Assembly (NCBI GenBank): GCA_963788655.1
Contig: CAWBHS010000078.1
Coordinates: 32,001-96,000 of the forward strand
DNA from: an uncultured Verrucomicrobiae bacterium
GTDB taxonomy: Bacteria > Verrucomicrobiota > Verrucomicrobiia > Limisphaerales > JAFGQR01
Length of the DNA: 64,000 nucleotides
Direction: 5' to 3'
The translations under genes and the position numbers were made by a program. This document shows, in pieces, positions 44,102 through 49,674 of the stretch. Below the pieces are notes generated by a model. That model searched no databases and was not told the DNA's origin. It saw only the letters and a list, made by a program, of their open reading frames with translations. Numbering within the stretch: position 1 is the first letter of the stretch; each line of letters begins with the position of its first letter.

Positions 44102-44177
<76 letters not shown>

Positions 44178-44292: not shown

Positions 44293-44560
44293 TCAACCGT
44301 GGTTACGCCCCTTTGGCTTTGGCTTCTTCGGCCTTGGCCGCGTCGCTGGCGTTTCCAACCTTGGCGGCGAGCTGATCCAAATCTCGATTGATTGCCCCCA
44401 ACTGGCCTTGCATGGTCGCGACGAGTTCAACCTTTTGCGCACAGGCACAGTGCTGCATTGCTTGCGCGGCCTCTTTGGCTTCCTGTGTGACCTCGTCGAA
44501 CTGCGGCACCGTGGCTTCTCCGGTTTTGGTCGCCGAAAATTGCGCCGCCGGTTTACCGCC
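44293..44560 (-). pseudogene. Degenerate coiled-coil (lipo)protein remnant
   Basis: EAKEAAQAM...QGQLGAINRDLDQLAAKV...AKAE helical sequence with no convincing start, ending prematurely. Confidence 0.4.
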
Positions 44561-44601
44561 CACCGCGAAGGCGGTGACGGCTCGGCCTGACTCCGTTCCA
44601 A

Positions 44602-44630
44602 CTGCCAGCAAGATGCCGGCAGCACGTTCC
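44602..44630. repeat. Single REP arm (family 6)
   Basis: CTGCCAGCAAGATGCCGGCAGCAC palindrome. Confidence 0.5.
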
Positions 44631-44963
44631 CCTGTCCTGCCGGGCAATTGGGTGGTCACTTCCTATAGCGCTCAGAAAAATGGAGTCGGGTCTGGTGAGA
44701 TAAGTGGAGCCACCGGCTGAGCGGCAGCGAGCCGAGTTCTTCTTTCCAAGGAGGCGATCGGGGCTTGGCTGCCCGGTTCCGGTGCTCCAACAAAAATCCC
44801 CGTCCCACCTTCTCGACACACCCGTGCCGATCCGGTAGGACGAGGACATTCATAATAGCGTTAGCATCCTAAGCGAGAGTTTCGCTTTTTTGCAATAACG
44901 ATCGCGGAGCATTTTGAGTTTACTCCAGACTGGTATCGCGGGGCGAAAATCCGGCGGCTGATC

Positions 44964-45485
44964 TTGGATTACTACCAAGTCCTGCGATCGATATTGCGAA
45001 GGCAGCCTCATCGGCGACGGTGCCTGACCCGCTGTCGGCACTGCCGCATCTTTTTTCTCACCGATCCGCGCAATACCGGGCGCAAGGATATGCCCCGAGG
45101 CAAGCGCAAGGACTTGGCCTGTCCCTTGGGTTGCCGTGAAGCCCACCGGAAGCACCAGTCCACATCACGCAGTGTTGCCTACTACCGGACAAAAGAAGGG
45201 CGAAGAAAGAAACGGGACCTGAACCAACGCCGCCCGGCGGCTTGCCGCCGCCCAGCGCCCGCGCCGCCGCCCAACGCCCCGAACGCACCGGCCCAGGCCG
45301 CCCGCGCACCGTGGCCGGAGCCGGTGGTGGAGCATGTCCGGAGGGTCGTCAGCTGGATCGAACACCGGCACATCCGCCGAGCGGAGATCCTGCAGGTGCT
45401 GGCGAAAGTTTTGAGACAACAGGGCATAGGCCGGCGACGCCGGATCGATCACACTGTGGCCTGGCTCAATGAACATCCGCCTTAA
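44964..45485 (+). CDS. Basic Cys-rich (putative Zn-finger) protein
   Basis: CRHC...CPLGC motif, Arg/Lys-rich; ends 11 nt before the ParB-like gene; start uncertain because the frame is open further upstream. Confidence 0.65.
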   Translation: MDYYQVLRSILRRQPHRRRCLTRCRHCRIFFLTDPRNTGRKDMPRGKRKDLACPLGCREAHRKHQSTSRSVAYYRTKEGRRKKRDLNQRRPAACRRPAPAPPPNAPNAPAQAARAPWPEPVVEHVRRVVSWIEHRHIRRAEILQVLAKVLRQQGIGRRRRIDHTVAWLNEHPP

Positions 45486-45496
45486 AGACATCCGGT

Positions 45497-46576
45497 ATGG
45501 CGCACGAGGTTGAACTGTCCGACTTGGACCTGCGGTACGAGGACTATCGCCTCAAACAGGCGGCGGTTGAAGCTCGGCTATTGACCTCGATTGCCCAACG
45601 CGGCATCGAGGAACCCCTGGAAGGCGTCGAGGTCGACCAAACCCAGGTTCTGCTCAATGGATTCAAGCGGTATCGCTGTGCCCGCAAGCTGCGCCTGAAC
45701 ACCGTGCCGTATACCTCCCTCGGCGCCGACGAGGTGAGCGGCATTCTGGGTTTGTTGCGCACGGCCAAGAACAAAAGCCTGAACATTCTGGAGCAAGCCC
45801 GCTTCATCGACGAACTCAAAAACGTGCGTCACCTGAGTGTGGCGGAGATCGCCACGGAACTCTCGGTCAGCAAAGCCTGGGTCAGTATGCGCCTGGGATT
45901 ACTGGGAGAGATGAGCCCCAAGGTACGTCAGCAGCTCTTCAGCGGTGCGTTTCCGGTTTATCCCTACATGTACCTTCTGCGTCAGTTCATGCGTATGAAC
46001 GGTGTCAAGAAGCAGGAGATCGAGCAGTTCGTCCTGGCCGTCAGCGGCAAAGATCTGAGCGTACGGGACATTACGCAATTAGCTCACGGCTGCTTTCGGG
46101 GACCCGCGTCCTTCCGCGAAGAGATTCTCAAGGGCAACGTGGCCCTGCCGTTGCGACAGATGAACCAGGTTCCTCTCGATCCGGAAGGATGCAACGAGTT
46201 CGAGCGGGTTTTGCTGAGCGACCTGGAAGTTCTCCAGAAGTACATGCAGCGCGTCATGGGCAAGAGCCAGGACCAACGCCTCCAGAGCCGGGTGTTCCAT
46301 TCCCAGTCGCATCTTTTAACCGGAGGGATTTTGAGCCGCGGCACGGCCTTCCTCCAAACCTTGAGACAACTCCATGATCGAAACGGACAAGCGCAAGGCG
46401 GTTTACCTACTCCACCAGGAAGGCATGAGCCAGCGGGAGATCGCCCGCCGGCTGGGCCTGGGCCGCAACACGGTGCGACGGATCATCCAGCAGCAGGGCC
46501 AGGTGGTGCACGCCATCCGCAAGGACAAGCAAACGATCGACCCGGATCTGCTCCGGCGCCTGCACCTGGAGTGTGA
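45497..46576 (+). CDS. ParB-like protein (ParB N-terminal domain plus HTH)
   Basis: SIAQRGIEEPL, LLNGFKRYRC (ParB box-like), SVAEIATELSVSKAWVSMRL HTH; 3' end overlaps istA. Confidence 0.75.
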   Translation: MAHEVELSDLDLRYEDYRLKQAAVEARLLTSIAQRGIEEPLEGVEVDQTQVLLNGFKRYRCARKLRLNTVPYTSLGADEVSGILGLLRTAKNKSLNILEQARFIDELKNVRHLSVAEIATELSVSKAWVSMRLGLLGEMSPKVRQQLFSGAFPVYPYMYLLRQFMRMNGVKKQEIEQFVLAVSGKDLSVRDITQLAHGCFRGPASFREEILKGNVALPLRQMNQVPLDPEGCNEFERVLLSDLEVLQKYMQRVMGKSQDQRLQSRVFHSQSHLLTGGILSRGTAFLQTLRQLHDRNGQAQGGLPTPPGRHEPAGDRPPAGPGPQHGATDHPAAGPGGARHPQGQANDRPGSAPAPAPGV

Positions 46577-47895
46577 GGGCCGCGTTCAACGCATGCACGA
46601 GAAGCTGGTGGAGGAGGAAGGGCTCGCCGTGAAGTATTCCACGCTGACCCGCCGGGTGCGGGAGTTGGGCTTGGGCGAACCGCCCCAGGTCCGTTGCCAT
46701 CGCGTGCCCGATGAACCGGGCTTGGAGATGCAGCATGACACCAGCGTTTATCGCGTCGAGCTGGGCGCGCAACGCGTCAAGCTCGTCGCCAGTCTGATCT
46801 ACCTGCGCTACTCCAAACGACGCTACTTGAAGTTCTACCGCCACTTCGACCGCTTCCACATGAAGTGCTTCTTGCATGAAGCCTTGATGTGGTGGGGCTA
46901 CGCGGCTCGCCAGTGCATCATCGACAACACCAACCTGGCGCGACTGCGAGGCACCGGCCGCAACGCGGTCATGGTCCCGGAGATGGCGGTCTTCGGTAAG
47001 CAGTACCGGCTTCGAGTTCTGCTGCCACGAGCTCGGGCACAGTAATCGAAAGGCGGGGGAAGAGCGCAGCTTTTGGACGGTGGAAACCAACTTCCTGCCT
47101 GGCCGCAGCTTTGCGAGCTTGGAGGACCTCAACCAGCAGGCCTTCGCCTGGTCGACCGAGCGCATGGAGCACCGCCCCCAAACCAAGGCGGCCATCATTC
47201 CCGCCAAAGCCTTCGAGCATGAACGCACCTTTCTGCTCCCGCTGGCGCCCCATTTGCCACCGCCCTACAAGGTCCTGCAACGGGGAACCGATGAATACGG
47301 CTACCTCAGCTTCGACGCCAATTACTATTGGGTGCCGGGCACCGATCGCGCTGACGTCACGGTGCTGCGCTACGCCGATCGGTTGAAAATCTACAAGCAA
47401 CGGGAATGTCTGGCCGAATATGGGTTGCCGCCCGACGGGGTCCGCAATGAGCGGTTTAGCCCGGAGGGACTGCCGCCGCCCCCCCACCATCCCAAGAACC
47501 GCCGCCAGCCCACCCAGGAGGAGGAAAAGCGCCTGCGGGCTATCGGAGCACCGGTCAGCGCCTACCTGGATTGGGTCCTCCCCCGCAAAGGTCCGGGGCG
47601 CCATCGTTTTTTAAGAAGCCTGCTGGCGTTGAGCCGGAAAATGTCTCCGGAGTTATTCCGGCAAAGCGTCGAGCGCGCGGCCCAATTCCGGATCGAGGAG
47701 ATCTCCACCCTCGAGCGCATCGCCTTCTTGTATCTGCAGCAAGGGACGGGCGTGCTGCCGGTGCCCCAAGTCGATGAGCAGTTCACGGAGCGCGAGGCCT
47801 ACTTGGAAGGCTCGCTGACCGAAGCCCCTGATTTATCCATTTATCAAGATCCTCCCCAAGACGATCCACCCCCACCACGCTCTGGACATGAATGA
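46374..47895 (+). CDS. istA: IS21 family transposase (frameshift near 47008)
   Basis: SQREIARRLGLGRNTVRR HTH; QHDT, IIDN, RKAGEERS as the DDE triad across two frames. Confidence 0.9.
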
Positions 47896-48655
47896 CGAAC
47901 TGACGCAACCACTAAAATATCTGCGCTTGAAAGGGCTGCTGGCCCACTGGGATGAGTATCTCCAGTTGGCGGCCCAAAAGAACTTCTCCCACGATCACCT
48001 CCTCCGGCACGTGGTGCAGGAAGAATACCGGACCAAGCGGGAGAACGCCCGCCAGTTCCGCCTCCGCAAGGCCGCCATCCCCGAACCGCTGGTCATCGAA
48101 ACCTACCCCTTCGCCCGGCAGCCCAAACTGAACAAGAAGAAACTGATGGCGCTGTATGACTCCCTGAACTTCATGCGGAACCACCAGAACATCCTCTGGC
48201 TGGGCCGCACCGGGTGCGGCAAGACCGGATTGGCCACCAGCTTTTTGATCCACGCCATCAATCACGGCTACAACGGACGCTTCGTCTCCTTCGCTGAACT
48301 CATCACCGAGCTGTTCCAATCGGTCGCCGACCACTCCGAACGCAAAGTCATGCGCAAATACCTGGCGTGGGATCCCTTGTTGGTCGACGAGATCGGCTAC
48401 ATTCCCATCGAACCCGTCCAAGCGGGGCTCTTTTTCGATCTGATGCAGCGGCGGCACAAGAAAAAGACCACTCTCATCACCTCCAATCTGGGCTTCAGCG
48501 ACTGGGGTTCCTTTCTCAAAAACGACCACCTCACCGCCGCGCTCATCGACCGCCTGACCGAAACCAGCCATGTCTTCAACATGAGGCAATGCAACGGCAT
48601 CCGTGACCGCCTCAGTTCGGACGATGAACTTCCCGCCGATCCGCCACAGGGCTGA
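47888..48655 (+). CDS. istB: IS21 helper ATPase
   Basis: GRTGCGKT Walker A, LLVDEIGY Walker B, LITSNL, AALIDRL; overlaps the istA stop. Confidence 0.93.
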   Translation: MNDELTQPLKYLRLKGLLAHWDEYLQLAAQKNFSHDHLLRHVVQEEYRTKRENARQFRLRKAAIPEPLVIETYPFARQPKLNKKKLMALYDSLNFMRNHQNILWLGRTGCGKTGLATSFLIHAINHGYNGRFVSFAELITELFQSVADHSERKVMRKYLAWDPLLVDEIGYIPIEPVQAGLFFDLMQRRHKKKTTLITSNLGFSDWGSFLKNDHLTAALIDRLTETSHVFNMRQCNGIRDRLSSDDELPADPPQG

Positions 48656-49493
48656 CCCACTGCGGGCCATCCCGTTGACCGCGGTGCTGCGGGCCTGGGG
48701 TGCTCAACCCGATGCCTCGGACCAGCGCAAGTGGCACACGCCTCAGGGTGTCCTTTCGGTCAATGGCGCCAAATTCATCAACTGGAGCCGCGGCGGGGGC
48801 GGCGGCGGCGCCATCGATCTGGTCATCCATTTGAACCGTTGCGGCTTCCGGCAAGCCCTGGACTGGCTGGCCGGCCATTTCCCCTCACCCCCAGCTCAGA
48901 CCGACCTGGGCTTGGCCCAACCCCAGTTCCAACTGCCCGTCCCGGATCCCGCCCAACTCGCCCGCGTCCGCCACTATTTGCTCCAGCAGCGCCGGCTGCT
49001 ACCCGACCTCATTGACCCGCTCATTCAAGCCGGTTCCCTTTACGCCGATCACCGAGCCAATGCCGTCTTCCTACTGCAGGGAGCTAACGACACTCCGGTC
49101 GGCGCCGAACTCCGGGGAACGACGGCCCAGTCCTGGCGGGGCATGGCTCCCGGATCCAAAAAGGATTGGGGCTTCTTCTCTATCCCTCGGGTCCCGTTTC
49201 CTCCCCAAGCCAATACGGGGCCAGGCGGCATCCTGCTGTGTGAATCGGCCATCGACGCCCTCAGCGGCCGCATCCTTCATCCGCAACTGGCGTGCGTCTC
49301 GACCGCGGGTGCTCGGCCCAATCCCCGCTGGCTTGGCCCGCTCCTGGCACAAAGTCGCACCGTCTATTGCGGCTTCGACACCGACACGACCGGTCAGACC
49401 ATGGCCCAGGCCATGATCGCCCTGCATCCGGCGGTCCAGCGCTTGGCGCCGTCGGACCACGATTGGAACGACGTTCTCGGTTTGCAGCCGTAG
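48624..49493 (+). CDS. DUF3991/TOPRIM primase-like protein
   Basis: GGGAIDLV, FRQALDWL, VGAELRG, LCESAIDALS, CGFDTDTTG (DxD), DWNDVL. Confidence 0.82.
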   Translation: MNFPPIRHRADPLRAIPLTAVLRAWGAQPDASDQRKWHTPQGVLSVNGAKFINWSRGGGGGGAIDLVIHLNRCGFRQALDWLAGHFPSPPAQTDLGLAQPQFQLPVPDPAQLARVRHYLLQQRRLLPDLIDPLIQAGSLYADHRANAVFLLQGANDTPVGAELRGTTAQSWRGMAPGSKKDWGFFSIPRVPFPPQANTGPGGILLCESAIDALSGRILHPQLACVSTAGARPNPRWLGPLLAQSRTVYCGFDTDTTGQTMAQAMIALHPAVQRLAPSDHDWNDVLGLQP

Positions 49494-49674
49494 CCCTCGC
49501 CGCTTCCGCTTCCTCCTTCGCTCCACTACTCGGAAACTGTTCTACTCGGAAAGCATGGCTCCTTGGAAAGAAGAACTCGGCTCGCTGCCGCTCAGCCGGT
49601 GGCTCCACTTATCTCACCAGACCCGGCTCCATTTTGCTAAGCGCCGTCGAACCCCGCCGGATGAGCATGATGCC

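Follow-up and report, generated by a model that had tools for sequence, protein, structure and literature searches.

A five-gene IS21-type transposon with genes for a ParB-like protein, a predicted DnaG-like protein and a small zinc-type protein, and with a palindrome inside the ParB-like gene

Within a 64,000-nt stretch of DNA from an uncultured Verrucomicrobiae bacterium (contig CAWBHS010000078.1, positions 32,001 to 96,000; hereafter the window), we found that positions 44663-49649 hold a transposable element of five genes: the transposition genes istA and istB of IS21-type insertion sequences (IS), and three more for a small zinc-type protein (ORF1; ORF, open reading frame), a ParB-like protein and a predicted DnaG-like protein with a Toprim domain. 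The same gene order lies within homologous ends at about 100 loci from genomes and metagenomes, with different flanks, and in these copies istA and istB keep the same company, with which they co-diverge: ORF1, the ParB-like and DnaG-like genes, and a palindrome that lies inside the ParB-like gene. The data show this anatomy, its conservation and the mobility of the element as a unit. We consider it on balance probable that the segment 44663-49649 represents one copy of a conserved, roughly 5-kb transposon from a deep IS21 branch, and that its extra genes serve the element itself, the ParB-like protein and the palindrome in cis control and the DnaG-like protein in primase-assisted repair or replication.

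A first-pass annotation of the window had described near-perfect 86-bp terminal inverted repeats around five co-oriented genes, and closer inspection bore this out. The arms at 44668-44753 and 49559-49644 form an inverted repeat of 86 nt with 97% complementarity, and between them ORF1, the ParB-like gene, istA, istB and the DUF3991+Toprim gene all point the same way. A consensus of 85 aligned ends of relatives placed the true ends 5 nt outside each arm, at 44663 and 49649. For the right boundary, a contig of run X4 matches the window over 49559-49649 and then diverges from it. The features of the element are the following.

44663..44753, plus strand: left terminal inverted repeat, tip CTATAGCGCT, defined by the inverted repeat pair and the 85 aligned ends
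44670-44684 and 44694-44708, plus strand: left-end direct repeats GCTCAGAAAAATGGA and GGTGAGATAAGTGGA, 24 nt apart
Inner end of the left repeat, plus strand: left-end inner conserved block TTCTTTCCAAGGAG
44865..45485, plus strand: ORF1 (first canonical start TTG at 44964), small zinc-type protein, from alignments
45497..46576, plus strand: ParB-like gene, from a family profile matching Spo0J, ParB and Noc
45985..46000, no strand: palindrome GTTCATGCGTATGAAC, 16 bp, candidate parS-like site
46374..47895, plus strand: istA, split as 46374-47045 and 47080-47895, IS21 family transposase with an Asp-Asp-Glu (DDE) triad and an N-terminal helix-turn-helix (HTH)
47888..48655, plus strand: istB, AAA+ helper ATPase (PF01695, E 1e-50)
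48603..49493, plus strand: predicted DnaG-like Toprim gene, DUF3991 and Toprim domains, likely start ATG at 48624
49559..49649, minus strand: right terminal inverted repeat, mirroring the left end, minus-strand tip CGACGGCGCT

Each of the 85 aligned ends contributes to a consensus that opens with the tip CTATRGCGCT and continues with two direct repeats, GCTCAGaTAAATTGA, 24 nt apart; this spacing is repeated in loci L012 and L024 and in the plasmid copy L126. Past a variable stretch, about 85-95 nt from the tip, the same ends share a third conserved block, TTTTCTTTCCAAGKAG, which is unlike the transposase-type direct repeats and, from its sequence, may be the site of another protein. The window copies of this block occupy 44737-44753 and 49559-49575, the inner edge of both terminal repeats.

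The IS21 assignment proposed for the element was borne out by both transposition proteins as well as by the two direct repeats at each end. The IstA family profile matched IstA of IS5376 (8q4d, 8b4h) with an E-value of 2e-14 over residues 10-284, with the residues D, D and E aligned. IstB, with a Walker A motif GRTGCGKTG and a Walker B motif LLVDEIGY, matched IS5376 IstB with an E-value of 3.6e-32. Scores against NCBIfam models stayed below their cut-offs: the IS21 transposase model NF033546 gave 80.2 and 29.3 bits on the two halves of the window istA (cut-off 160), and NF038214 gave 190.7 bits for IstB (cut-off 200). When IstA was compared with 72,556 plasmids, its sole close relative was on Desulforapulum autotrophicum pHRM2a, at 52.9% identity; the best listed of the other 642 plasmid records, which carry the annotation IS21 family transposase, matched it at 27-28% identity across about 70% of its length. 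These distant matches suggest that the clade is a deep branch.

We assembled relatives of the element by two routes. With the ParB-like protein as query, species-representative genomes yielded 34 loci, many of them on contigs of about 5 kb. So that ascertainment did not depend on ParB alone, we also searched metagenome contigs with an IstA alignment and kept the best 80 of more than 576 relatives, all at least 62% identical to the query IstA; gene presence in this set was counted only where the contig had room. Gene order was identical in all 34 ParB-ascertained loci, with ORF1 present in 31, IstA in 33, IstB in 28 and Toprim in half (17). Toprim is missing from the other 17: 11 of these stop at or ahead of that point because the contig ends there; others are a remnant (L035), a truncated copy (L032) and two loci with short frames only at that place (L026 and L042), while L045 has a 186-aa CHC2 zinc-finger protein in place of Toprim. 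The IstA-ascertained loci carried the ParB-like gene in 71/71 cases, ORF1 in 66/67, IstB in 60/60 and Toprim in 44/46, both Toprim exceptions (L061 and L066) being truncated copies. Gene order inside homologous inverted repeats had been named beforehand as a check on the element, and we found the three extra genes consistently inside. Among the 17 ParB-ascertained loci without Toprim, L025 has an IS110-family (DEDD) transposase gene right after istB, at the expected Toprim position (L025:10421-11419), which from its sequence looks like an insertion into that element copy.

The ends of relatives point to mobility of all five genes together. When the left flank was aligned locally with the reversed right flank, at a score of at least 40, inverted repeats that enclose all five genes emerged in 34 of the 51 testable loci (those with ORF1, Toprim and enough flank), and element sizes measured from the repeat pairs were 4.8-5.4 kb. 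Where target duplications are present they are 6-8 bp long. Exact direct repeats abut the ends in L018 (GCGGGG), L022 (ATAAGA, with a 1-nt offset), L024 (AAATGAA), L114 (CTGAAGAA) and L113 (ATCATTGC(C)), compared with a chance expectation for exact 6-mers of about 0.01 over the 38 loci tested at a fixed boundary. The genome of L024 holds one element copy only. Pieces nearly identical to the element (99-100%) and without the flanks of the window turn up in sequencing runs on soil, sediment and marine sediment that belong to different studies, where parts of the stretch that lack contig cover do not signify absence; RNA-library contigs that resemble the stretch at 90-95% do not signify expression.

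The host genome itself contains a second, diverged element, E2, with the same five-gene order and 45-64% protein identity. It is split at contig ends, running from C60:404189-406906 into C65:1-3733 and into C66:1-3480, and it has at least two copies. E2 has 89-nt inverted repeats, its two right junctions are 99.5% alike, and a 7-bp target duplication, CCAACAA, lies directly outside its ends on C60 (left) and C65 (right). The E2 copy on C65 shows frameshifts in tblastn.

We then compared the divergence of the five genes over the 48 loci in which all of them are uninterrupted, using pairwise protein distances and 999 permutations. Distances correlated with those of IstA at 0.84 for Toprim, 0.83 for IstB, 0.75 for the ParB-like protein and 0.63 for ORF1, and ORF1 correlated with the ParB-like protein at 0.83; none of the 999 permutations reached the observed correlations. 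The congruence that the first-pass annotation had proposed to test was found, the extra genes co-diverging with istA as tightly as istB does. As related sequences are not independent of one another, this co-divergence signifies joint inheritance and not interaction. Mean pairwise identity was 0.66 for the ParB-like protein, 0.65 for IstA, 0.68 for IstB, 0.59 for Toprim and 0.50 for ORF1, and this similarity between accessory and core proteins suggests that the accessory genes are under comparable constraint.

The ParB-like protein consists of a ParB/Spo0J-type N-terminal domain and HTH (residues ~6-197) followed by a family-specific C-terminal part. Its family profile matched Bacillus subtilis Spo0J (6sdk) over residues 6-197 with an E-value of 3.8e-10; ParB and Noc proteins from other species were matched as well, while Pfam HTH_ParB and KorB and NCBIfam Noc/ParB matched below cut-off only. 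At the position of the GERRxRA motif the family has the box LLNGFKRYRCA, in which G55, K57, R58 and R60 are invariant among 66 sequences. By Pfam and NCBIfam, no ParA-like gene lies inside the ends. In 11 of 18 aligned relatives the ParB-like frame stops after residue 299, 23 nt into istA; in the window copy this stop reads CAA (46394-46396), and the protein runs on to 359 aa with a 203-nt overlap with istA. The frame overlaps noted in the first pass do exist, between the ParB-like gene and istA, between istA and istB (8 nt) and between istB and Toprim, but the 203-nt ParB/istA overlap is a read-through of some copies only. At 46394-46396 a synonymous change in an Arg codon of istA toggles the ParB-like tail, CGT giving the stop TAA and CGC giving CAA; the tail of 25-60 aa is present in 7 of the 18 aligned copies.

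A scan for short palindromes identified a 16-bp family consensus, GTTCATGCGCATGAAC, at the same place in most elements, where it lies inside the ParB-like gene and encodes QFMRMN. The window version differs from it by one central mismatch, and E2 carries the variant GTTTAGGCGTCTAAAC. Among 96 loci the symmetry is perfect in 57, holds for 7/8 pairs in 35 and for 6/8 pairs in 4; in 17 loci the palindrome is longer by 3 bp per arm, reaching 22 bp. Two variants, GTTTATGCGCATAAAC and GTTTATACGTATAAAC, have perfect symmetry via paired changes that cost Met-to-Ile replacements. We counted codons at the 68 loci that encode FMRMN at this place. The Arg codon is CGC in 54 and CGT in 14 (68/68), although outside this site the gene uses these two for 37% of its Arg residues, and it is never CGG, CGA or AGG, which together account for 60% elsewhere; Phe is TTC in 65/68 (55% elsewhere), Asn is AAC in 67/68, and the preceding codon ends in G in 65/68. 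A degenerate form of the pattern occurs exactly once per element in 87 loci, the isolate plasmid among them, and always about 490 nt from the start of the gene. Within the 8.96-Mb host genome the window palindrome is found, at up to one mismatch, only in the element, and the E2 version only in E2. The palindrome is 1.3 kb away from the left end of the element and 3.6 kb away from the right, and its half-sites are not enriched in the window (71 versus 66 expected). The codon choice, the compensatory changes and the uniqueness in the host genome suggest that the palindrome is a candidate parS-like site of the ParB-like protein. Chromosomal parS sites within or beside parB genes are a known pattern. 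Being perfect and spacerless, the palindrome would also suit a dimeric HTH protein better than an RNA hairpin.

The product of the fifth gene matched Pfam DUF3991 (1e-13) and Toprim_2 (9e-8), and residues E214, D218, D259, D261, D287 and D290 are invariant in 14 sequences. Its domains run from a CHC2-like N-terminal domain without zinc ligands to DUF3991 and then Toprim; the N-terminal motif, KWHT...FMNW...GGGGAIDL, has no Cys or His at the places of the CHC2 zinc ligands. A Foldseek search with its AlphaFold 2 (AF2) model (predicted local distance difference test 82.8) returned only primases at the head of the list, led by Aquifex DnaG (2au3, E 1.7e-7, zinc-binding and polymerase domains) and including the E. 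coli DnaG core and a T7 primase fragment (1eqn, 3b39, 1nui). These matches have a probability of 1.00, with template-modelling (TM) scores of 0.51 by target (1nui) and 0.35-0.44 by query. The family profile found no match among PDB sequences. Kinship of the N-terminal domain with CHC2 is based on the fold match, on a weak Zn_ribbon_DnaG match (E 0.0016) in 1 of 4 N-terminal pieces and on a short profile match to the CHC2 protein of a sister clade. On the strength of the model we predict that the fifth gene encodes a DnaG-like, primase-type protein.

ORF1 has the invariant residues C24, H26, C27, N37, C53 and C57 (numbered from TTG 44964), and a basic linker and a helical C-terminal part follow the Cys region. 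Its family comprises 868 clusters at E<=1e-3 among 1.84 billion representative proteins, with no Pfam or NCBIfam family and no PDB match by sequence profile. Structure searches were similarly uninformative: Foldseek against pdb returned nothing at E<=0.001, the best Z in VIA wide was 4.3, within noise, and the ESM Atlas gave only unnamed clusters of its own, along with HNH-like entries at TM 0.27-0.33. None of 66 members matched Pfam HNH families at E<=1, and an HNH or endonuclease-VII-like nuclease is a bare lead from the modelled fold. Coding in ORF1 is conserved from the start of the stop-to-stop frame at 44865 (44865-44963, about 33 codons upstream of the first ATG, GTG or TTG; FFAIxIxEHFEFxPDWYR...), and in many relatives ORF1 begins right after a stop codon, without a canonical start. 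The ORF1 of the window copy has an 8-aa insertion of its own, which stems from a 24-nt near-duplication (45080-45119).

How the extra genes might serve the element can be outlined from these homologies. As in IS21, IstA and IstB would cleave the ends, capture the target and transfer the strands. A ParB-like dimer would bind the internal palindrome and then act in cis on the element, either as a clamp or, spreading along the DNA, as a repressor of the single operon, for which KorB and BisD are the best analogies; it could also mark the element's own DNA against self-insertion, or pair the ends. We rank repression or self-marking first among these roles, and a clamp loaded at the palindrome could reach the operon start and both ends. 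No sigma-70-like promoter was predicted within the element, which has one terminator-like site where 4.9 were expected. ORF1 would be a likely partner of the ParB-like protein, because it co-diverges best with it. Complex prediction with IstA (residues 1-505), ORF1 and the ParB-like protein as partner, from own alignments, scored 0.10 and 0.04 against a mark of 0.32, which is evidence neither way. The DnaG-like protein, finally, would prime DNA synthesis at gaps or forks left by strand transfer. That the extra genes are machinery rather than cargo, as the first pass had supposed, is favoured by their consistent presence inside the inverted repeats and by their co-divergence; this evidence does not extend to the specific roles.

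Several observations weigh against this interpretation. The CTP (cytidine triphosphate) pocket of the ParB-like protein is partly kept: GFKRYR has Phe for Glu, the Glu and Asn of box III are aligned to unlike residues, and Pfam ParBc has no match in the protein. GERRxR and the box III Glu/Asn are the motifs by which ParB binds and hydrolyses CTP. Third positions of the six palindrome codons are conserved at 0.90 against a gene mean of 0.65, a value inflated by the two Met codons among them. Most short metagenome copies, and the window copy too, show no target duplication; such absences may reflect assembly chimeras of multicopy elements or later rearrangement. Host range taken from membership in metagenome-assembled genomes is unreliable for 5-kb contigs. 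The fifth gene, moreover, is not constant in kind. In a diverged sister group, which includes the Desulforapulum plasmid pHRM2a and L045 (L045:6902-8643 and L126:9125-9661), it encodes a true CHC2 zinc-finger protein of 178-186 aa with no Toprim domain. This suggests that primase catalysis is not universal in the wider group, and Toprim/primase catalysis appears dispensable at least in these CHC2-only elements. L045 also has a tyrosine integrase gene and a tRNA-Ala gene just beyond its right end.

A stronger version of the same idea would make the element a transposon with its own ParB-parS system and primase. The clamp would coat the element from the palindrome and shield it from IstA/IstB or pair its ends, and the primase together with the DnaC-related IstB would start synthesis at strand-transfer forks, so that IS21-type transposition would have a self-contained step of replication or repair that does not depend on the host's restart primosome. 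We regard this full scheme as rather unlikely.

The extra genes could alternatively be cargo, a host-useful or anti-defence module that an IS21 element merely carries and that has no part in transposition. Plasmids and conjugative elements often carry ParB-like and primase genes. Papers that name DUF3991 mention DUF3991/Toprim proteins in connection with conjugative elements, and a recent survey gives ParB-fold proteins many roles outside segregation (PMC12704722). The gene set is invariant, however, even though IstA has diverged to ~56-65% identity, and the extra genes keep pace with IstA as closely as IstB does. The ParB-like gene is never found apart from istA, save in the truncated remnant L035, the overlaps between genes suggest one translationally coupled operon, and the cis palindrome is private to each element. 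Cargo of transposons usually differs between copies. We therefore think it quite improbable that these genes are cargo.

There is a similarly small chance that the element lives partly as an excised circle or small replicon, with the ParB-like protein and palindrome providing partition-like maintenance and the primase replicating the circle. A ParB protein, a cognate site and a primase are indeed the make-up of plasmid maintenance modules, and passages of PMC10122671 describe IS21 as using abutted ends in tandem copies as reactive junctions. The element, however, contains no ParA, initiator or helicase gene, and all long contigs show chromosomal or plasmid integration. Junctions between the right and left ends, which the first-pass annotation had proposed to look for in connection with an excised circular intermediate, were seen in 0/116 loci, and matching prefix and suffix sequences in 0/107 contig-sized loci, none of which is a circular contig; assemblies are a weak test for rare circles.

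The ParB-like protein could also be a target selector that recruits IstB, as TnsD/TniQ do for TnsC in Tn7-like elements. Its gene stands directly ahead of istA with overlapping frames, and both elements of the host genome lie less than 500 bp from a tRNA-Phe gene. Against this, the only conserved cognate-looking site is inside the element and not in its targets, and a tRNA gene was near 0/17 other loci with flanks, which led us to reject tRNA targeting. Neither the target duplications nor the insertion sites have any common sequence, and we deem ParB-guided target choice very unlikely. A chance composite, in which an ordinary IS21 element had landed in or beside the ParB-primase operon of one genome, has virtually no probability left and is refuted by the conserved order within homologous ends at about 100 independent loci with different flanks and by target duplications outside all five genes.

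Some properties are particular to the copy in the window. Its istA, first read as a single gene, is that of an IS21 transposase but is here broken into two frames. Comparison with L014 identified a 1-nt insertion, an extra C at ~47006, after which the frame shifts (following ...GKQY); the insertion falls after the second D of the DDE triad and before its E. In most loci istA is one intact frame of about 500 aa, which suggests that the frameshift is specific to the window copy. A 542-nt contig of run X1 (46816-47358) has four other letter differences (99% identical) and is without the extra base at 47006, indicating that an intact istA of the same lineage exists. The frameshift may be a real defect of the window copy or an assembly error, run X1 being a possible source sample, and the copy is probably defective. 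As assembled it cannot make full-length IstA and, unless the assembly is in error, would need transposase in trans. The first-pass annotation had not included this frameshift, the palindrome within the ParB-like gene or the DnaG-like fold predicted for the entire Toprim protein.

The element is flanked by ordinary genes of the host, for a Gfo/Idh/MocA oxidoreductase and for a heparinase II/III-like lyase. A tRNA-Phe gene, the sole match of an Rfam scan, lies at 44102-44177, about 490 bp left of the element. E2 is likewise within ~500 bp of a tRNA-Phe(GAA) gene (L002:381-467), and its relative orientation differs from that of the window element. A search of 30 relatives with the left flank matched only the tRNA and a small gene and so gave no empty site. 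A stretch of ~38 nt left of the element (44591-44628), in the 5' part of a small minus-strand ORF at 44303-44659, is repeated at about 10 places of the genome with 89-97% identity, including a five-copy run spaced 229 nt at C65:83715-84791, near the end of C65.

Current genome annotation fails to recognise these genes as a mobile element. RefSeq labels the isolate copy as a hypothetical protein, ParB, an HTH protein, an ATP-binding protein and a CHC2 zinc finger protein, with no IS named. In the full-text literature we found no published description of an IS21-type element with ParB, primase or zinc-protein genes, and the main text of the 2025 survey of the ParB-CTPase fold (PMC12704722) contains no transpos-, IS21, IstB, primase or Toprim. 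The five-gene IS21 variant with its private ParB/palindrome pair is real, widespread and apparently undescribed. IS21 now serves as a structural model of how a dedicated AAA+ ATPase drives a transposase (PMC10122671, PMC11208146), and here a large natural branch of it has, as obligatory additions, a ParB-fold protein and its private palindrome, a predicted DnaG-like enzyme and a zinc protein. If our reading is right, the element would offer testable answers on self-regulation, on avoidance of self-insertion and on DNA synthesis after strand transfer, and it would extend ParB-fold biology to transposons.

The fifth-gene product resembles DnaG and the primase domain of T7 gp4 in its predicted combination of a zinc-binding-like domain with an RNA-polymerase/Toprim fold and in its invariant acidic Toprim residues; unlike DnaG, it has ~290 aa, no helicase-binding domain and, in this clade, no zinc ligands, it is encoded by a transposon, and its primase activity is a prediction. 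Bacteriophage Mu (MuA/MuB), a 37-kb phage that transposes replicatively, has its enhancer about 1 kb from its left end, with no ParB-like protein there, and relies on host restart proteins and primase. The present element likewise has a cis site ~1.3 kb inside its left end and would need replication after strand transfer if its transposition is replicative. It shares with Mu a transposase and AAA+ pair of the same superfamily, as set out in PMC10122671.

KorB of RK2, which is locked by KorA, and BisD of ICEclc, an integrative and conjugative element (ICE), are ParB-family CTP clamps that regulate mobile-element genes over kilobases, according to PMC11790492 and PMC12409273. Like these systems the element combines, as far as its genes go, a ParB-fold HTH protein of mobile DNA with a palindromic site and a small partner-like protein, and long-range action of their kind from a loading site would span both ends of 5 kb of DNA. 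It differs in that its host is a transposon and not a plasmid or ICE, in having no ParA/IncC, in CTP motifs that are partly kept, and in that ORF1 is zinc-type and unrelated in sequence to KorA.

With IS21 and IS5376, the element shares a DDE-type IstA with an N-terminal HTH, an AAA+ IstB encoded immediately downstream and, in some copies, short target duplications. The part of PMC10122671 on IS21 ends describes terminal inverted repeats that hold multiple direct repeats, L1/L2 and R1/R2, and the two direct repeats at each end of our element match these. It stands apart from both in having five genes instead of two, a size of ~5 kb, IstA and IstB proteins under the NCBIfam IS21 cut-offs, a third conserved block at each end and a palindrome in its interior.

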